Shown piece by piece: positions 6,578 through 31,028 of a stretch of 64,000 nucleotides of DNA. The DNA is from an uncultured Acidimicrobiia bacterium (GTDB lineage: Bacteria > Actinomycetota > Acidimicrobiia > Spongiisociales > ZC4RG35). Position 1 is the first letter of the stretch. The number at the start of each line of letters is the position of its first letter. Location of the stretch: NCBI GenBank assembly GCA_963744905.1, contig CAVUUV010000004.1:102360-166359 (forward strand), in the 5' to 3' direction. The notes beneath the pieces are model-generated. The model had not been told where the DNA came from. It searched no databases and saw only the letters and a list, made by a program, of their open reading frames with translations. The position numbers were made by a program, and so were the translations under genes.

Positions 6578-7062
6578 TCAAGGATCATCCCGCTTCGGCG
6601 CGGAGCCGTCCATGGGGAACACCCCCTATAGATGTGTACAACCAGGGGCGGCCTCTCAGGAACCCGACTTCGGCATCGGGGCCATCCCGCCTGTCCGTTC
6701 TAGTAGGACGGCCGCAGTTTGATGGGCTTCTTCGGACTGCCCGACCAACATGATCAGGCCGCTATCGCATCAGGTCGTCCCCCAACACCACCCGCTCATC
6801 GTCGGCCGAGGGCAATGGGTGGCGATGAAGGGTGAAGGAGATACCCTGTTCAGGCTACCGGCCCCGCCCGCCACAGAGCCGGATGATCCTCCAGGGGTTG
6901 CCGTTCGACAGACGCCATCGCCGCGACGAGGACCGGGACTCCTGTGCCGCTTTGCCCCTTCCCTGGCCCGCCCGGCGCCTAGAGCGGCCCGGAGAAATAT
7001 CGGGCGGGCGCGAAAGGAGTCCTCTCCTCTCGGACACTCAGCACCCGAAAGGAGACACACAC

Positions 7063-7659
7063 ATGACCGACACCACCGTCCATCCTCAGCCGACCCGCAC
7101 CGGGCCCAGAGGAACCCGCATCGCCGTGATCGCCGTGATCGCCGTCTTGGCCCTCGGCACCGGTATGGCGACGCTGATCGGATTCGGCGTCCTCACCCTG
7201 GTTCCGGTAGCGACCGTCGAGCAACCCGACCACAGCCCAGCCCCCATCCCGATGCCGGCCCTGCCCGACGGGGAGATGTTCGCCTGGATCACCGGCGTCG
7301 GCGACCTCATGGTCACGGTTGATCCGGCCCAGATGCTGAGCGGAGAGCCGGCTCACGACGCCGCCGTGGAAGACGGGATCATCGCCCCGGGCGAGGATCT
7401 GCCCAACGACTACTACATCGTCAACCCCTCCAGGCAAGCCATGGACGTAGCCGTGGCAGCCAACGCCGCAGTCACGGTCTACGCCCTGGACTCCCGGGGG
7501 GCCATCGCCGAGGCGAGGATCTCCCTCCTCGATCTGGCCGCCGCCTTCGCCGGCGATCAGAGGATTCCCGTCTACGGGCTCGACCCGAGTGCCTTCCCCG
7601 TCACTTTGACCGTCGAGGGCGGGGCAGTGACTGCCATATCACAGGTGTACCTGCCCTGA
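7063..7659 (+). CDS. Hypothetical secreted/membrane-anchored protein
   Basis: An ATG at 7063 follows an AAAGGAGA RBS. An N-terminal TM/signal-anchor segment (IAVIAVIAVLALGTGMATLIGFGVL) is present. I see no recognisable domain. Confidence 0.5.
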   Translation: MTDTTVHPQPTRTGPRGTRIAVIAVIAVLALGTGMATLIGFGVLTLVPVATVEQPDHSPAPIPMPALPDGEMFAWITGVGDLMVTVDPAQMLSGEPAHDAAVEDGIIAPGEDLPNDYYIVNPSRQAMDVAVAANAAVTVYALDSRGAIAEARISLLDLAAAFAGDQRIPVYGLDPSAFPVTLTVEGGAVTAISQVYLP

Positions 7660-7664
7660 TCTCG

Positions 7665-7692
7665 GAGGGCCCGCGACCTTTCGCGGGCCCTC
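7665..7692 (+). terminator. Perfect 12-bp stem / 4-nt loop hairpin downstream of the 7063–7659 gene
   Basis: GAGGGCCCGCGA-cctt-TCGCGGGCCCTC lies 6 nt after the stop codon. It is GC-rich and has no U-tract, which is common in high-GC genomes. Confidence 0.5.
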
Positions 7693-10293: not shown

Positions 10294-10752
10294 GTGACAG
10301 AACCTCCCAGCGGCACCGTCTCGTTCCTCTTCACCGATGTGGCCGGATCGACCCGCCTGTGGGACTCCGACCGCCGGGGAATGGCCGAGAGCCTGGCCGT
10401 CCACGACCGAATCGTGCAAGCGGCAATCGCCGACTACGGAGGCTACGTGTTCTCCACCGCCGGCGATTCATTCGGAGCCGCCTTCCCGACTGCCTCGGCC
10501 GCCGTGGAGGCGGCTCTCCAGGCTCAGCTGGCTCTGGTCGCCGAGCCGTGGATCGGACCCACGATCCGGGTTCGGATGGGCATCCACACCGGCACCTCAC
10601 AGGAGCGAGCCGCCAACTACTTCGGGCCCGAGGTCAACCGGGCGGCGAGGATAATGAGCGCTGCCAACGGCGGCCAGGTGCTGGTATCGGCCGTCACCGC
10701 CCAGCTGCTGGCCGGTTCGGGGAACGGCGTCCTACACCCTGGTCGATCGTGA
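10294..10752 (+). CDS. Adenylate/guanylate cyclase catalytic domain (N-terminal part of a cyclase–ATPase–TPR regulator; frame broken near 10735)
   Basis: FLFTDVAGSTRLW … GDSFGAAF … RVRMGIHTG… are class III cyclase motifs. The canonical C-terminal cyclase motif LVDRDLHDLKDLDRPEHLFEL continues in the frame of the next ORF. Confidence 0.75.
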   Translation: MTEPPSGTVSFLFTDVAGSTRLWDSDRRGMAESLAVHDRIVQAAIADYGGYVFSTAGDSFGAAFPTASAAVEAALQAQLALVAEPWIGPTIRVRMGIHTGTSQERAANYFGPEVNRAARIMSAANGGQVLVSAVTAQLLAGSGNGVLHPGRS

Positions 10753-10822: not shown

Positions 10823-13177
10823 GTGACCGAGCCCATCCACACCGCCGACGTGACTCGCAACCACCTACCCGCACAGCTGACGTCGTTCGTCGGCCGTCGC
10901 CGGGAGCTCGATGCGATCGCTGCCCTGATCGAAGACTCCAGGCTGGTCACGTTGACGGGAGTGGGCGGAACCGGAAAGACCCGTCTGGCCGTGGAGGCCG
11001 CCTCCCGGGCGGAGGAGGACTACCCCGACGGTGTATGGATGGTGGAACTCGCCCCCGTCGCCGACCCCGCCCTGGTGGTCGGGGAGGTGGCGGACCTGTG
11101 GGGTCTACGGGCCGGTGAGGGGGTGGATCTGATCAGGGTGGTCAAGTCACACGTGGCCCGACAGACAATGCTGTTGGTGGTCGACAACTGCGAGCACGTG
11201 CTGGAGTCGGCCGCCGACCTGGTGGCCCAGCTGCTGGCCGCCGCTCCGGGTCTGACGGTCATCGCCACCTCGCGAGAATCGCTGGGGATAGGCGGAGAGG
11301 CCGTGTACCGGGTGCCATCCCTGGGCCTACCCGAGCGGTCGTCGGGGGCCGATGCATCCGACGCCGTGCAACTCTTCCTGGACCGGGCCGCTCACAAGGG
11401 AGGCGACGACATCCCGGCCACGGAGATGGAGGCGGTGGTGAGAATCTGTCGCCGCCTGGACGGGATTCCTCTCGGTATCGAGCTGGCCGCCGCCCGTCTC
11501 CGCACTCTCAGTGCCACGGAGCTGGCTGACCGTCTCGACGCTTCTTTCCGCATCCTGACCGGCGCCTCCAAGACGGCGGTGTCCCGCCAACGCACCCTTC
11601 AGACCGCAATCGACTGGTCCTACGATCTTCTCGGCGAGGAGACCGCGGCCGTGTTCCGCCGCCTATCCGTCTTCGCAGGTGGCTTCGACCTGGCCGCGGC
11701 CGAAGCGGTGGGCGTCGACGAGGCGATCCAGGACTGGCAGGTGCTCGACCACATCGACCAGCTGGTCGACAAGTCCTTGATCGTCGCCGCCCACCACGGG
11801 GGACAAACCAGATTCCGGATGCTCGAGCCGATCCGCCAGTACGGCCAGGAGCGGCTGGCGGCCGCCGGCGAGGCCGACGCCGTATATGAGGCCCATGCTC
11901 GACACTATGCCGGATATGTGGCCGAGGTGGCCCCGGGCCTCCGGAGCCGGGAACAGCGCCGTGCCAATGACGAATTGCTGGCCGAGTGGGACAACATCCG
12001 TCTCGCCCTGGCCACGCTCCAGGATAAGGGTCGCGCCGATCTGCTCTTGTTGACCTGCTTCGACCTGACCTGGTTCTTCAACCAATCCAGCCTTCTCGTG
12101 GAGGGACGTGAGCTGGTTCTGTCCGCTCTGCAGTCGGTGGGGAACGAGGCTTCTGACGAGGCGGCGGCCCGAGCCTGGTGGGAGGCGGCAATACTGGCCA
12201 CCTTCCTCACCGATCCCCGAGGGATCGACTATGCGGAGAGAGGGCTGGAACGGGCTCGTGCCGGCGGTCTACCCGGCCTGGAGGGCTGGTTGAGCGCCGC
12301 CCGGGGTATGACCGCACGGCTTCTCGATCCCGGCCGGGTGGATGACAGGGACTGGCTGGCCGAGGGAGTCCGTCTGGTCAATGAGAGTCCCGGCCTGCCG
12401 CTGTTCGATGGGGCGTGGGATGACGTCTTCTTGGATTTCATGGTGCTCTTCGCCGGGGGCTCGCCTGAGGGGGTAGAAGGCCCAGACACCCTCCCCCGCC
12501 AGAGGGCGATGAGTCCCGGCGCGGACGCGGGCCATTTCCTCGACTCCCTGGTGAGCCGGGCCATGACCGTGGGCGACCTGAACATGGCCGCCAACGTCAT
12601 GACCCTGGCAACATCGGTTCCCGACCAAGACGATTGGGTACTCGAACAGCTCCACCGCAGTGTGGAGATGCTCGAAGAGCTGGACTTTCGTCACGGGCTG
12701 GGCCATTCCCTGTTCTACCTGGGCGTGGAGACCCAGGACCGGGGAGTCGGCGATGGGATCGATGACCTGGCTCGGGCCTCGCAGATGCTGGCCGAACTGG
12801 GGGACCTGCCCTGTTCGACCTGGTCCGCCGCCCGGCTGATCCGCGCCTTGCTGGACTCCGATGAGCTCGACGAGGCGGGACGGTACCTGGCCGGCTCGGT
12901 GGGGAGGTTGATCGATTTCGAGCGTGAGATCCCCTCCGATCTTCCGGCACTGGCCTGCCGTTATGCGGTGGCTCGCGGAGACAACATCACGGCCGCCCGG
13001 GCGCTCGGCCACCATCTGGCTCATCACGCCGACAGTGACGATGAGGCTGCCCGCTGTCTGGAGAGGTTGGAAAGCATCCTCGACGTGGGGGAACTAGAGA
13101 GGCGAATGGCTGAGGGGGCCGCCACATCCCCGTCCGAGGTGCTGGCCTGGATCCAGCAGGCGGTGGCGACCGCCTGA
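10823..13177 (+). CDS. NB-ARC/AAA ATPase + TPR regulatory protein (C-terminal part of a cyclase–ATPase–TPR regulator)
   Basis: A Walker A motif (LTGVGGTGKTRLA) is present. The protein has 784 aa and a TPR-like C-terminal half. This architecture is typical of the large actinobacterial cyclase/ATPase/TPR regulators. Confidence 0.8.
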   Translation: MTEPIHTADVTRNHLPAQLTSFVGRRRELDAIAALIEDSRLVTLTGVGGTGKTRLAVEAASRAEEDYPDGVWMVELAPVADPALVVGEVADLWGLRAGEGVDLIRVVKSHVARQTMLLVVDNCEHVLESAADLVAQLLAAAPGLTVIATSRESLGIGGEAVYRVPSLGLPERSSGADASDAVQLFLDRAAHKGGDDIPATEMEAVVRICRRLDGIPLGIELAAARLRTLSATELADRLDASFRILTGASKTAVSRQRTLQTAIDWSYDLLGEETAAVFRRLSVFAGGFDLAAAEAVGVDEAIQDWQVLDHIDQLVDKSLIVAAHHGGQTRFRMLEPIRQYGQERLAAAGEADAVYEAHARHYAGYVAEVAPGLRSREQRRANDELLAEWDNIRLALATLQDKGRADLLLLTCFDLTWFFNQSSLLVEGRELVLSALQSVGNEASDEAAARAWWEAAILATFLTDPRGIDYAERGLERARAGGLPGLEGWLSAARGMTARLLDPGRVDDRDWLAEGVRLVNESPGLPLFDGAWDDVFLDFMVLFAGGSPEGVEGPDTLPRQRAMSPGADAGHFLDSLVSRAMTVGDLNMAANVMTLATSVPDQDDWVLEQLHRSVEMLEELDFRHGLGHSLFYLGVETQDRGVGDGIDDLARASQMLAELGDLPCSTWSAARLIRALLDSDELDEAGRYLAGSVGRLIDFEREIPSDLPALACRYAVARGDNITAARALGHHLAHHADSDDEAARCLERLESILDVGELERRMAEGAATSPSEVLAWIQQAVATA

Positions 13178-13209
13178 GGCGAAGGGAGCCGCGATACCCT
13201 CACGTCGGT

Positions 13210-13617
13210 ATGGAGGCACTTGCCACCTTCGAGCTCTCCGAACAGCGCCAGGTCCCAACAGCCGACGACGTCGACTCGGTGGTCGACGTCTGCCTCTCCC
13301 ACAGTGCCTTCACCAAGACGTTCCGGGGTGACCTGGACGGATCGAGTGTCACCGAGATGCTGGCTGCCCGCTCCCCCGGAGGAGCCGGATACGTGGCGAT
13401 GGAACGCATCGTCGGCCGCCTGGGCGATCGGGTGGGGACCTTCGTCCTGTTGCACCTGGGAACCCTCGACGGAGAGGGCGAGCCCGCTGGTCACTGGCCG
13501 ATCGTGCCGGGATCCGGAACCGGTGAGCTGGAGGGAATCAGCGGCCACGCCCACATCGGCGCCGACGACGACGGAACCCACCGCATCCAGCTTCATTACG
13601 AGCTGGGGGCCCTCTGA
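13210..13617 (+). CDS. DUF3224 domain protein
   Basis: 135 aa. The …VPGSGTGELEGISGHA… region matches DUF3224 family proteins. Confidence 0.65.
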   Translation: MEALATFELSEQRQVPTADDVDSVVDVCLSHSAFTKTFRGDLDGSSVTEMLAARSPGGAGYVAMERIVGRLGDRVGTFVLLHLGTLDGEGEPAGHWPIVPGSGTGELEGISGHAHIGADDDGTHRIQLHYELGAL

Positions 13618-13621
13618 CAGA

Positions 13622-13743
13622 CTCTGTGAACCCTTTCTTGGCAACGGGCGGAGATTCGGTTCACAATGAGAGCCGTCCCAGCGCAAACCGTTCTCTCTGT
13701 GAACCCTTTCTCGGCCACCGGCGGAGATTCCGTTCACAGAGAG
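13622..13743. repeat. Repeat family A, tandem copies 1 and 2 (CTGTGAACC-N26-GGTTCACAG hairpin elements)
   Basis: Two roughly 46 bp units (13622–13667 and 13693–13743) are present. Both the stem sequences (9–10 bp) and the loop sequence (CTTTCTYGGC…GGAGATTC) are conserved. Confidence 0.6.
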
Positions 13744-13745
13744 TG

Positions 13746-14192
13746 CTACTCCGACCGAGACGCGTACCTGAAGGTCGTGAAGGGCCATTGCCGCTGGAGC
13801 CATTCGGTCACGGCTCTCCAGACAACGACGTCCAACTCGGCGCGGCTCTTGGTGACCCATGAGCTGACATAGGCCTCGGTGTCGCCGTTTCGATCGGGAT
13901 AGATGTACAGGCACCCGATCACCTCGTCGCCATCCAGGATCGAGTACGTGAAACCCCGGCCCTCCTCGAAATCCCGGGCATGCCCGTCCAGGTCTTCCAG
14001 GTTTTCCTCCAGCGTCATCGGGTGAGGCCAATTGCCCCATTCGCCCGGGGTCGAATGGATGTGATCCATGCTCGAGGTCCAGGCGGCATAGTCCCGCTCG
14101 TTGTGGACCGATCCGAGCGGCTCCAGGCGAAAGCCGGGCCCGTCGAAGCTCGTGGGCGGGTCGAAGTCGTCAGGAACCAAGCTCGAGGGCAT
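13746..14192 (-). CDS. GNAT-family N-acetyltransferase
   Basis: 148 aa. A …FTYSILDGDEVIGCLYIYP… acetyl-CoA-binding core is present. The gene is flanked by family A repeats. Confidence 0.7.
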   Translation of the reverse strand: MPSSLVPDDFDPPTSFDGPGFRLEPLGSVHNERDYAAWTSSMDHIHSTPGEWGNWPHPMTLEENLEDLDGHARDFEEGRGFTYSILDGDEVIGCLYIYPDRNGDTEAYVSSWVTKSRAELDVVVWRAVTEWLQRQWPFTTFRYASRSE

Positions 14193-14244
14193 GCCGGGGA
14201 GAGCTTACGCCCGAGCCCGGATGTCCCTGATGTTCCCGCAGGCG

Positions 14245-14291
14245 GACTGTGAACCATTTCTGGGCGTAGGCCCCAGATTCCGTTCACAGAC
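14245..14291. repeat. Repeat family A, copy 3
   Basis: CTGTGAACCATTTCTGGGCGTAGGCCCCAGATTCCGTTCACAG has the same stem and loop signature as the copies at 13622–13743. Confidence 0.6.
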
Positions 14292-14350
14292 CTGGCTCCT
14301 TCCCACCACCCCCTCCGGCTAAATGCCGTGGCCAGCAGCTGGAGGGCAAG

Positions 14351-15121
14351 ATGTGGATGGAATGCTTCGCCGGTGACGCCCGGATCGAAGCCGACGACGC
14401 CGAGACGATCGCCGAACGATTCCTCGCCCACGCCCGGCAGAATCACGACTGGTCGTACCCGGAAGAGGCACTCCGCAACTACGCCCGCAACTACGCCGAG
14501 GCGAACGGGCGGCTCACGGGGGGTACGGAGCGTCTGCCCGAGATAGGGGAGGTGACCGTCTATCCGGTGACCGAGGATCGTATCGATGATTGGCTCAATT
14601 TCTTCGACCACGACGGCTTCGCCGGCAATCCGGACTGGGCTTCGTGCTACTGCCTCGAGCCCCACGTCCCACCCACCGACGAGGAGCCTGAGCGACCTTG
14701 GCGCCAGGTCCGGTCGGCCATGGTCGACCGGTTCCGCACGGGCGGCACCTACGGGTACCTCGCCTACGTCGACGAGAACCCGGTGGGGTGGGTCAACGCC
14801 TCACGGCGGGACGACTACGGCTTCTTCCGGTCGGTGGATCCCGACGGACCCGAACCGGCATCGGTCATCGGCGTGTCCTGCTTCGTAGTCGCGCCTCCAT
14901 ATCGGAGACATGGAGTCGCCGGAGCGCTCCTGGACAGGGTTATCGCCGACGCCTCTGGTCGAGGAGCCGAATGGATCGAGGGCTACCCGCACAATTCTCC
15001 TGACAGTGGCGACCCGGGCCATTTCCGCGGGCCGCGGCACCTCTACGACGCCCGCGGATTTGAACCGGTCGAGCAGCGCGAGCGCGACACGGTCATGCGC
15101 CGCCCGGCGCCCACGGGCTGA
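14351..15121 (+). CDS. GNAT-family acetyltransferase with N-terminal extension
   Basis: The C-terminal 150 aa form a GNAT fold (…VIGVSCFVVAPPYRRHGVAGALL…). Confidence 0.65.
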   Translation: MWMECFAGDARIEADDAETIAERFLAHARQNHDWSYPEEALRNYARNYAEANGRLTGGTERLPEIGEVTVYPVTEDRIDDWLNFFDHDGFAGNPDWASCYCLEPHVPPTDEEPERPWRQVRSAMVDRFRTGGTYGYLAYVDENPVGWVNASRRDDYGFFRSVDPDGPEPASVIGVSCFVVAPPYRRHGVAGALLDRVIADASGRGAEWIEGYPHNSPDSGDPGHFRGPRHLYDARGFEPVEQRERDTVMRRPAPTG

Positions 15122-15611
15122 CCTCACCGCCAACCCAGACCATCTCGCCGTCTTCGTCGTAACGGTCGCTGGGTCTGAGCCCGAGGTGGACCGCCACGTG
15201 CTGGGATGCAACATGGTCAGGATGGATGTGGGCAGAGAAGCGCGCCACACCGAGCTCGACCAGAAAGGTTCGCATGGCGGAGACAGCTTCGGTGGCGAAC
15301 CCGCGTCCCTGCCAAGGAACCCCGATCACCCACCCCAGGTCGGCGTCTGCGCCGCGCACGGTGGCCTGCACATATCCGATCGGCGTTCCGTCCTGGCGGA
15401 TCACCCAGTTGAGCCAGGTCTCGGCGGGGCGGGCCGAACCGGCCACTTGATGACGGTACAGATCTTCCAACTGCTCCCGAGTAGGAGGCTCGCCTCCGGT
15501 GAACGTGTACAGACCTGGATCGGCCAGGACGCCCCACATCTCCGTGGCGTCACTCACGGCCAATGGTGTCAGAGTGAGACGGGCACTGCGAAGCACATCG
15601 CTCGGAGCCAT
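15093..15611 (-). CDS. GNAT-family N-acetyltransferase (RimJ/RimL-like)
   Basis: The WVIGVPWQGRGFATEAV motif is present. It overlaps the convergent previous gene by 29 nt. Confidence 0.7.
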   Translation of the reverse strand: MAPSDVLRSARLTLTPLAVSDATEMWGVLADPGLYTFTGGEPPTREQLEDLYRHQVAGSARPAETWLNWVIRQDGTPIGYVQATVRGADADLGWVIGVPWQGRGFATEAVSAMRTFLVELGVARFSAHIHPDHVASQHVAVHLGLRPSDRYDEDGEMVWVGGEVSPWAPGGA

Positions 15612-29766: not shown

Positions 29767-29798
29767 GAGGCGCGGGAACCGCCGGGTTCCCGCGCCTC
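29767..29798. terminator. 14-bp perfect stem / 4-nt loop hairpin downstream of the 30100–29822 gene
   Basis: The hairpin is GAGGCGCGGGAACC-gccg-GGTTCCCGCGCCTC. A second hairpin lies at 29637–29665. Confidence 0.45.
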
Positions 29799-29821: not shown

Positions 29822-30100
29822 TCAGTACTGGATCGCCTCGACCTCTTCGAAGATCTCGACCCTGGGCTGGCCGGTGACGCCGGCCCGGTGCATCGACTCT
29901 TTCAGGTCGGCGTTGTCGACGAAGGCCCGGGCGGCCTCGGTGGTGTCGAAGCCGGCCACGACCGTGATGTTGTTGGGATCATCGACGTTGCGGTTGATGC
30001 GGTGAAACAGCGCACCACCCTTGGCCGGCGGGTACTCGTCGAAGACGGCCTTCCAGCGGTCGTAGTCCTCGACCTCGTGGTTGATGGCGAGCATTTGCAT
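29822..30100 (-). CDS. Small ferredoxin-like-fold protein (ABM/Dabb-like), hypothetical
   Basis: 92 aa. The start ATG at 30100 is preceded by a GGAAAGGAG RBS. Confidence 0.5.
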   Translation of the reverse strand: MQMLAINHEVEDYDRWKAVFDEYPPAKGGALFHRINRNVDDPNNITVVAGFDTTEAARAFVDNADLKESMHRAGVTGQPRVEIFEEVEAIQY

Positions 30101-30161
30101 GCTTTCTCCTTTCCTCGACCCGTTCTCGGGTCGTGCTGTGTGTAAGCGGCCTCTTGCCGCC

Positions 30162-31028
30162 TCAGCCTGCGAACAGCTCCTCACGAAGGAACTGTTCGAT
30201 GCCGCGTGGCCGGAACCCGGTCAGCGTCTCGGTGATTGGCTGCGGATCACCGAGATAGGTTGTCGCCTGGAAGTAGTCGAACAGCTCGGCATAGGCGTCC
30301 TTGTGCGGCTCCGACAGCGGGAACCCGGCCACGTACTCGCGGCTCGTCACCGGCGCCTGTTGGTAGGCGACCGGGCGACCCAGCACCGAGGTGGCGGCTT
30401 CGGCGATCTGCTCGCCGGTGATCCCGCCGGGGACGTGGACGTCGAATCCCCGGTTGGCCGGACCCCGATCGAAGAACGCCGCCGCCGCGGTGACGATGTC
30501 CTCGACGTCGGTCGCCGCCCACACCATGTCCCCGGGCCATGGCATGCTCACCACTCCCTGGGACAGATAGTCTCGAGCCGCCCACAGGTTCTGGAGGAAC
30601 CACGCCGGCCGCAGGATCGTGTACCCGATGCCCGAGTGGGCCACTCGCTCCTCGATTGGAGTCTTGTTGTCGAGGACCCGTGCCCCGGTGTCGCCACGGT
30701 CCGCCCCCACGGCAGAGTGCATGACGAGATGCGCCACGTCGTGCTTGAGGGCGGCATCGATGACGTTGTCGGCAACGATCCGTTCTGTGGCGAACAGATC
30801 GTCGCCTCCCTCCATCGGTGTGAGATACACACCGTCGGCTCCCTCCACCACTTTGATCGCCTGCTCAGGGTCGGTCAGGTCGGCGGCGACCGGCTCCACG
30901 CCACCGTCCCAGTTCCCCGGGTTCCGACAGATCGCCCGCACCCGGCTGCCTTGTGCCGCAAGGCGCCGCGCCAGCCGGCCGCCAATCGTTCCCGTCGCTC
31001 CGATGATTGCGATGGTTCCCATGTGCAT
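30162..31028 (-). CDS. NmrA-family NAD(P)-binding oxidoreductase
   Basis: An IAIIGATGTIGGRLARRL Rossmann motif is present. The length is 288 aa. Confidence 0.8.
   Translation of the reverse strand: MHMGTIAIIGATGTIGGRLARRLAAQGSRVRAICRNPGNWDGGVEPVAADLTDPEQAIKVVEGADGVYLTPMEGGDDLFATERIVADNVIDAALKHDVAHLVMHSAVGADRGDTGARVLDNKTPIEERVAHSGIGYTILRPAWFLQNLWAARDYLSQGVVSMPWPGDMVWAATDVEDIVTAAAAFFDRGPANRGFDVHVPGGITGEQIAEAATSVLGRPVAYQQAPVTSREYVAGFPLSEPHKDAYAELFDYFQATTYLGDPQPITETLTGFRPRGIEQFLREELFAG

Follow-up and report, generated by a model that had tools for sequence, protein, structure and literature searches.

What is the palindrome that occurs three times around a small gene in the genome of an uncultured Acidimicrobiia bacterium: the boundary of a mobile gene cassette, a regulatory site, or a member of a dispersed hairpin family? 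The question arises from a stretch of 64,000 nucleotides of contig CAVUUV010000004.1 (the window), in which an earlier note had described three direct-orientation copies of a hairpin element, two of them in tandem after the stop codon of a DUF3224 gene and the third beyond a neighbouring gene for a protein of 148 amino acids (the 148-aa gene). The explanation that we favour, at about even confidence and on sequence comparison, is a copied palindromic module resembling repetitive extragenic palindromes (REP), which would form a small lineage-restricted family and be retained as a 3'-end, intercistronic or leader hairpin, in transcripts or in single-stranded DNA (ssDNA).

A search with the pattern TGTGAAC-N20-40-GTTCACA returned exactly three matches in the window (13625-13665, 13698-13738 and 14248-14288; W1, W2 and W3), confirming the described arrangement, and no match in 100 dinucleotide-preserving shuffles of the window; with the paired flanks included, the extents agree with the coordinates of the note. 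A repeat search placed the copies, which all share one orientation, in a single direct-repeat family whose other members are 87% and 67% identical to the first copy; common to them is a 41-nt core, TGTGAACC…GGTTCACA. No fourth copy was found in the window with either a covariance model or a structure-based scan. The start-to-start period of the W1-W2 doublet is 73 nt, and the 3' edge of W2 stops 2 nt short of the stop codon of the 148-aa gene on the minus strand. In the strain variants L005 and L006, W3 differs solely by one G-to-A change in the apical loop. The shared CEPFLG..RRF peptide, which the note had already dismissed as an artefact, does arise from translating the repeat. The lone sigma-70-like promoter match between 13100 and 14500, TTGGCA-18-CACAAT, lies inside W1 (13638-13667, plus strand) and is not conserved in the other copies.

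Every copy forms a hairpin on either strand, with RNA folding energies of -16.6 to -30.9 kcal/mol (z -2.3 to -6.9) and DNA folding energies of -8.7 to -17.0 kcal/mol; folding, which had been proposed as a check, thus gave stable predicted hairpins for all three window copies both as RNA and as DNA. The architecture is two-tiered: the outer stem leads into a 4x4 pyrimidine internal loop, beyond which lie an inner stem of 7-8 bp (TCTCGGCC/GGCGGAGA) and a small variable apical loop. The "conserved loop" of the original description is really the internal loop, the inner stem and a variable tip.

Copies at other loci were sought in two scans. The genome-collection scan, which demanded AGATT in the 3' arm, a subtype-specific feature, and so undercounted the family in GTDB genomes, identified an uncultured Acidimicrobiia metagenome-assembled genome (MAG; CAVYYV010000004.1, here L001) that shares synteny with the window (nucleotide identity 75-81%) and carries a hairpin doublet with a start-to-start period of 74 nt. 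The metagenome scan, which was not exhaustive (Ga0299913_10016277 carries the element yet was missed), identified three contigs without similarity to the window (L002, L003 and L004); the arms of these copies were set by the search pattern, and their invariance carries no weight. The core is thus present at five loci. All copies are intergenic: four copies at three loci sit 0-4 nt past stop codons (those of DUF3224, the 148-aa gene, radA and cyclophilin), and the remaining ones (W3, the L001 doublet and L002) sit between divergent genes. Judged by these loci in related uncultured soil bacteria, the family is dispersed, intergenic and bound to no single gene, and the consensus search in relatives that the earlier note had suggested recovers the same core at unrelated loci in related lineages. 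Copy number looks low; a single copy was found in ~25 kb around radA-disA.

Sequence constraint was assessed by comparing the window with L001. The hairpin arms are identical at 62 of 68 positions (91%), as against 51-57% at the third codon positions of the two flanking genes, 58% in the spacer and 43-71% in the apical loops. The arms, at 91% identity against saturated neutral sites, are under purifying constraint, and so is the T.T internal loop. These data bear directly on a locally duplicated palindrome, or on ordinary unique terminators, produced by chance or neutral processes. The single cluster in 64 kb and the tandem look of W1 and W2 with their 73-nt period would suit such an origin, and the note had reserved it for a motif that occurs nowhere else and whose pairing is not preserved. 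With the core at four other loci, arms at 91% against saturated neutral sites and no match in the shuffles, we regard a local duplication as refuted and this whole class of explanation as extremely unlikely.

In an eight-copy alignment, 78% of the cells are paired in register, compared with 29-44% when the partner is slid. The inner stem of W3 differs from those of W1 and W2 by a C-G to G-C change on both sides (alignment columns 21/33). In the L046 orthologue of the cyclophilin copy, the outer stem changes from TGTG…CACA to CGCG…CGCG, that is, two T-A pairs become C-G through changes in both arms, with a folding energy that still reaches -27 to -30 kcal/mol. Pairing can therefore, as far as this one orthologue tells, be maintained by compensatory change. 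Covariation in the eight-copy set was not significant (110 of 500 shuffles).

Strong sequence conservation at low copy number would also fit a regulon, and we considered a duplex-DNA operator of a dimeric regulator (Rex- or CRP-type) whose tandem copies act cooperatively. The half-sites TGTGAAC/GTTCACA are identical to those of the Rex operator (ROP) of Streptomyces (TGTGAACNNNTTCACA; ATGTGAACGCGTTCACAA; PMC5355995, also PMC2883068) and resemble CRP-type TGTGA…TCACA as well, and five of the six positions are found 18-150 nt upstream of start codons (those of the 148-aa gene together with the 256-aa GNAT gene, disA, the PHP gene and the amidohydrolase-like gene). The Rex operator, however, is an inverted TTGTGAA/TTCACAA with half-sites ~4 nt apart (PMC5355995, PMC2883068), and here they are separated by 27 nt instead of 2-4 nt. 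L046 turns TGTG into CGCG on both arms (CGCGAAC/GTTCGCG), which breaks the half-site and keeps the pairing, and the inner stem likewise varies by pair-preserving changes. Moreover, the genes on either side of W1 and W2 converge, so that there is no promoter to control; sister lineages lack the site upstream of disA; and no common theme unites the flanking genes, none of which is a Rex-type (redox or respiratory) target. Since the half-sites lie 27 nt apart and changed together in L046, an operator is quite unlikely, and the transcription factor array of the earlier note is unlikely with it.

To follow resident copies over time, homologous spacers were compared. The radA-disA spacer was examined in four lineages via close DisA homologues: the hairpin is present in 10 of 10 contigs with 100% DisA identity and absent from the lineages at 90%, 88% and 87%. 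The cyclophilin-PHP spacer was likewise compared in four lineages via PHP homologues. L046 and L047 (92% identity) keep the hairpin, L048 (87%) retains only the remnant GAACC/ACAGAA, and L049-51 (74%) only a lone TCTCTGTGAACCG arm. As read from these spacers, resident copies are long-lived and vertically inherited, with selection for pairing in some lineages and loss in others. They are also dispensable on the same comparison, because sister lineages lack the element or hold remnants of it only.

Both spacers show further features. CTGATAGCCTGC just before disA is common to all four radA-disA lineages (L024-L045), and CGTAGGCTGAC just before the PHP start, kept in L004, L046, L048 and L049, shares TAG(C/G)CTG with it. 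At the radA-disA locus of the lineage with the hairpin (L003 9928-10026, also L024-L033), the disA GTG lies 96 nt from the radA TGA, in frame and without an intervening stop; a RadA-DisA fusion would result from readthrough, and the frame is probably a coincidence. Two contigs that are syntenic apart from this differ in the insertion sequence present at one and the same place ~9 kb upstream of the cyclophilin gene (L049 1-1036 vs L050 517-2918), one being of IS3 type (HTH_Tnp_1 and rve) and the other of IS21 type (rve/Mu-transposase and IstB).

The position of W1-W2 and W3 on either side of the 148-aa gene had suggested a cassette-like acetyltransferase insertion with recombination sites. In L001, the doublet occupies the position of W3, with the 148-aa gene on one side and a truncated homologue of the 256-aa GNAT gene on the other, and shared derived bases relate its first copy to W1 and its second to W2; relative to the 148-aa gene, the doublet stands on one side in the window and on the opposite side in L001. 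The DUF3224 side of the gene carries no hairpin in L001, where 2.3 kb including a DUF5995 gene intervene (L001 3974-6247). The 256-aa GNAT homologue (L001 2966-3483) lacks ~138 N-terminal codons and is broken off directly beside the hairpin doublet. At 17 other loci, retrieved through four close homologues, the counterparts of the 148-aa gene showed four unrelated neighbourhoods and no hairpin. Given the one-sided doublet in L001, the 17 hairpin-free homologue loci, the copies beside housekeeping genes and the lack of an integrase in the 64 kb, a cassette-like insertion with recombination sites at its ends is not supported, and the hairpins do not delimit a mobile acetyltransferase cassette. 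Since the doublet is differently placed and adjacent to rearrangements in L001, the comparison suggests that the hairpins take part in, or mark, local rearrangement.

The mismatches within the stem are themselves conserved. Tandem T.T mismatches occupy the same two positions in seven of eight copies, and of the non-Watson-Crick, non-wobble cells (n=35), 16 are T.T and 8 are C.C, pyrimidine-pyrimidine on one strand; neither feature was imposed by the search. The strand bearing them folds better in five of six copies and is the sole strand to retain the loop and stem architecture in L046. The wobble asymmetry between strands (8 G.T vs 4 A.C cells) is suggestive and not significant.

Such one-sided mismatches would suit a strand-specific ssDNA site, with the T.T loop marking the strand read by a recombinase or transposase encoded elsewhere. 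The enzyme could be a Y1 transposase similar to REP-associated tyrosine transposases (RAYT) or to those of IS200-IS605, in which case W1-W2 would correspond to the left and right ends of a palindrome-associated transposable element (PATE), or an integrase acting on an attC-like site. The folding preference of the T.T strand, the direct orientation of all window and L001 copies with the doublet on opposite sides of the 148-aa gene, the lack of a target-site duplication (as expected of Y1 elements) and the attC-like anatomy all agree with this explanation, and REP-RAYT binding requires a mismatch in the stem (PMC3479197). Against it, neither a Y1/HUH enzyme nor an integrase is encoded in the 64 kb, a conserved guide or target tetranucleotide is lacking, as is a GTAG/CGTC tag, and the attC consensus is matched at 4 of 7 positions, without extrahelical bases and in an element shorter than known attC. 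The neighbours are housekeeping genes and not cassettes, the very few copies show long vertical residence with decay, and the L002 copy is a perfect palindrome without any strand mark. We consider an ssDNA site of this kind, the main rival explanation, rather unlikely.

We return to the copied REP-like module. Copying is inferred because an identical 41-nt core cannot arise independently at unrelated loci; the module would spread in a transposition-like or recombinational manner, by a factor encoded outside the window. The conserved arms and preserved pairing argue for a function as a folded hairpin, so that a resident module would act as a stable hairpin, most likely in transcripts. Copies that abut stop codons (W1, W2, radA and cyclophilin) would form 3'-end or intercistronic stem-loops without a U-tail, which may stop 3' exonucleases, bring about termination or processing of the transcript, and so determine how strongly the upstream gene is expressed relative to the downstream one; copies in divergent regions (W3, the L001 doublet and L002) would be part of 5' leaders. 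By analogy, a protein, either a nuclease or the copying enzyme, probably recognises the conserved pyrimidine internal loop and reads it on one strand. In Actinobacteria, 3' stem-loops are long and mostly without U-tracts, with 3' ends peaking ~50 nt past the stop codon (PMC13613805), and many Streptomyces 3' ends are marked by hairpins without U-tracts (PMC8269248). Because of these reports and of other unique post-stop hairpins in this genome, a transcript-level role is favoured for the stop-abutting copies.

Strong hairpins beside stop codons and a 73-nt repeat-spacer-repeat spacing also bring to mind canonical Rho-independent terminators and a degenerate CRISPR mini-array, respectively. There is no T-run, however, and W3, the L001 doublet and L002 follow no gene; for CRISPR, the window lacks cas genes, some other loci have a single copy, no more than two repeats are adjacent, the repeats measure 45-51 nt and the spacer 22 nt. 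Both readings are very unlikely.

Several observations weigh against the copied module retained as a transcript hairpin. A 3'-end role does not explain W3, the L001 doublet or L002. A terminator scan of 13100-14500 returned no site, and no copy is followed by a T-run. With respect to radA/disA, cyclophilin/PHP and the 148-aa gene, the strand that folds better and is better conserved is the antisense one, which fits an ssDNA role over an mRNA role. When L046 is included, covariation rests on one diverged orthologue, and the observed score was reached by 35 of 500 shuffles; the double change in L046 could, moreover, reflect templated correction within the palindrome and not selection. As for copying, Pfam searches of 58 window genes revealed no transposase, integrase/tyrosine recombinase, HUH/Y1 enzyme or cas gene, and no consistent target-site duplication or conserved flank surrounds the copies. 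No lone arm occurs elsewhere in the retrieved loci, including next to the IS3 and IS21 genes of L049/L050, and none was found in three scans of viral contigs. Approximately 450 kb of related Acidimicrobiia DNA from the retrieved loci yielded no extra copies with the covariance model or the structure-based scan, and the whole CAVYYV01 MAG gave one match to a subtype pattern that catches four of five copies of that subtype.

Searches against known families were also negative. Rfam gave no hit at gathering thresholds in the whole window and only noise (E about 1-10) for 13500-14400 at E up to 10, so that the structured RNA or attenuator of the earlier note is not established. A scan of the window for tRNA and tmRNA found none. 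The extra 2.3 kb of L001 holds the DUF5995 gene only and no partner enzyme. BLAST against phage and plasmid records returned nothing except a 21-nt chance match in a Bacillus plasmid. None of the eight copies carries a GTAG/CGTC tag at either foot, and the few GTAG/CTAC strings are confined to the variable apical loops. GC skew is negative across the window and too weak at the short loci for comparing orientation with replication. Two further candidates were rejected: a DDE-type MITE (a miniature transposable element with inverted repeats), as no consistent direct repeats flank the copies and no arm lies at the IS3/IS21 ends, and a selenocysteine insertion sequence (SECIS) or other readthrough signal, as TGA is simply the common stop codon here, stops interrupt the downstream frames at two of three loci, and the apical loop shows no conservation.

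Features at the hairpin locus and the copies on unrelated contigs (positions refer to the window; extents of W1, W2 and W3 include the paired flanks)
Feature	Position	Strand	Details
DUF3224 gene	13210..13617	+	Pfam PF11528, E = 2.6e-30; TGA stop 13615-13617 immediately before W1
W1, two-tier hairpin	13622..13670	+	Core 13625-13665; begins 4 nt past DUF3224 stop; R1 covariance model 63 bits
W1-W2 spacer	13671..13692	.	Sequence not conserved; 58% identity with gaps to L001 spacer, near random
W2, best-formed copy	13693..13743	+	R1 model 72.9 bits; RNA -30.9 kcal/mol, z -6.9
W2 outer stem	13693-13704 / 13732-13743	+	CTCTCTGTGAAC / GTTCACAGAGAG
W2 internal loop	13705-13708 / 13728-13731	+	CCTT / TTCC, symmetric 4x4
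W2 inner stem	13709-13716 / 13720-13727	+	TCTCGGCC / GGCGGAGA, one G.G mismatch
W2 apical loop	13717-13719	+	ACC, 3 nt
148-aa gene, weakly GNAT-like	13746..14192	-	W2 on 3' side, W3 on 5' side; GC content at third codon positions (GC3) 0.82
W3	14247..14289	+	Between divergent genes; 54 nt upstream of 148-aa gene start, 61 nt upstream of 256-aa GNAT start
256-aa GNAT acetyltransferase gene	14351..15121	+	Pfam Acetyltransf_1, E = 4.4e-09; divergent from 148-aa gene, W3 in shared upstream region
L002 copy			Perfect palindrome with 22-bp stem; between divergent aminotransferase and amidohydrolase-like genes, the latter starting ~18 nt away
L003 copy			TTCTGTGAACC…GGTTCACAGAA; abuts radA stop codon; 46 nt before disA
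L004 copy			1 nt past cyclophilin stop; 38 nt before PHP phosphoesterase gene

The identity of the bracketed gene was also examined. That hairpins bracket the 148-aa gene is correct, and its assignment to GNAT holds weakly only: the protein matches Pfam Acetyltransf_3 at E = 0.0026, below the cut-off, and has no NCBIfam hit. The family counts more than 3,200 Acidimicrobiia homologues in metagenomes, and its close homologues are named "N-acetyltransferase" by NCBI. Neither Pfam nor NCBIfam holds a model that it matches above threshold, and its surroundings differ greatly among close relatives; it may warrant definition as a new GNAT-like family.

Elsewhere in the window, the convergent GNAT genes at 14351-15121 (plus strand) and 15093-15611 (minus strand) overlap by 29 nt at their 3' ends (15093-15121). 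The adenylate/guanylate-cyclase open reading frame (ORF) at 10294-10752 and the AAA/STAND ORF at 10823-13177 correspond to a single 959-aa gene (cyclase, AAA_16 and HTH_77) in the near-identical L005, with four gap positions over 3 kb at 99.2% identity; on this alignment, therefore, either the window or L005 has frameshifts (a pseudogene) or assembly errors in the cyclase/AAA gene. Two unique GC-rich hairpins, at 7665-7692 and 29767-29798, have perfect stems of 12-14 bp and energies of -35 and -37 kcal/mol over 60 nt. They lie directly past the stops of the genes at 6832-7659 (plus strand) and 29822-30184 (minus strand), respectively, have no T-tail, and are probably ordinary U-less actinobacterial 3' stem-loops.

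If the copied-module explanation is right, the Acidimicrobiia, an abundant and almost uncultured class of soil and aquatic bacteria, carry a copied hairpin module that is REP-like without the tags or the abundance. Small palindromic repeats would then extend to a phylum without catalogued ones, and annotators would gain a recognisable intergenic landmark. With few copies per genome, filled, empty and decayed sites and one compensated orthologue, the family offers a compact test case for the way in which a hairpin, selfish or copied, comes to be retained as a 3'-end or leader structure, and for what reads the T.T loop. A bolder proposal, which we consider unlikely, is that the hairpin is the strand-specific site of an undescribed ssDNA-acting enzyme in Acidimicrobiia, either a domesticated Y1/HUH protein of RAYT type or an integrase-like one, with the T.T loop as strand mark. 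This would mean a REP/RAYT-like or attC-like copy-and-rearrange system in Actinomycetota, a phylum missing from the REP survey (PMC3733652), and would explain the relocated doublet, the gene truncation and the 2.3-kb difference in L001. No new gene-cassette system is revealed, and the practical consequences are modest.

Among known systems, integron attC sites are alike in having an outer stem with AAC…GTT and, beyond a central unpaired stretch (here the spacer-like 4x4 loop), a second stem with a variable tip, and in direct-orientation copies that flank a small accessory-type gene. They differ in that TGTGAAC/GTTCACA match RYYYAAC/GTTRRRY at 4 of 7 positions each, that the loops here are symmetric without extrahelical bases and that the element is shorter than known attC sites. 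Nor is there an integrase in the 64 kb or a cassette array; the other copies lie between housekeeping genes, and the flanked gene is hairpin-free elsewhere. The hairpins of IS200/IS605 and PATE elements share the direct orientation and the imperfect pairing, the doublet of two slightly different hairpins placed differently in two genomes and the lack of a target-site duplication, but differ in the Y1 transposase, which is missing from the window, and in the conserved target or guide tetranucleotide; most copies here are solitary and long-resident. The U-tract-less ("I-shaped") 3' stem-loops of actinobacteria resemble the element in a long stem beside the stop codon without a U-tail and a 3' end ~50 nt downstream. 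Ordinary ones, however, are unique, whereas this element recurs nearly base for base and occurs in divergent promoter regions as well. In its span, about two helical turns across lower stem, internal loop and upper stem, the element also resembles classical RNase III sites, as in hairpins at which intercistronic RNA is processed.

The closest likeness is to REP. These, too, are short imperfect palindromes in intergenic DNA, often just downstream of genes and even touching the stop codon (PMC3733652, PMC3479197), and they likewise occur as singletons and clusters with the stem broken by a conserved mismatch. In the E. coli REP-RAYT system, the bulge or stem mismatch is read by the transposase, and correcting the bulge abolishes binding (PMC3479197); proposed roles of REP include mRNA 3'-end stabilisation and termination (PMC3733652, PMC3479197). 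The two REP superfamilies are defined by a GTAG or CGTC tag, and neither Actinomycetota nor Acidimicrobiia are among the host phyla of the survey that describes them (PMC3733652). Whereas REP number tens to thousands of copies per genome, with a RAYT gene flanked by copies, the present element has no such tag, no RAYT among the 58 window genes and seemingly very few copies; it is two-tiered, at 41-51 nt is longer, at or above the upper REP size limit, and forms head-to-tail dimers. The MITE/REP-like family of the earlier note is accordingly upheld as a dispersed, constrained family, and is not established as a classical REP or MITE, given the lack of a tag, the lack of a target-site duplication, the head-to-tail dimers and the seemingly low copy number. 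Taken together, our results show that the element is real, conserved and previously uncatalogued; on the favoured explanation, it is REP-like in its lifestyle and stands outside the described REP superfamilies.

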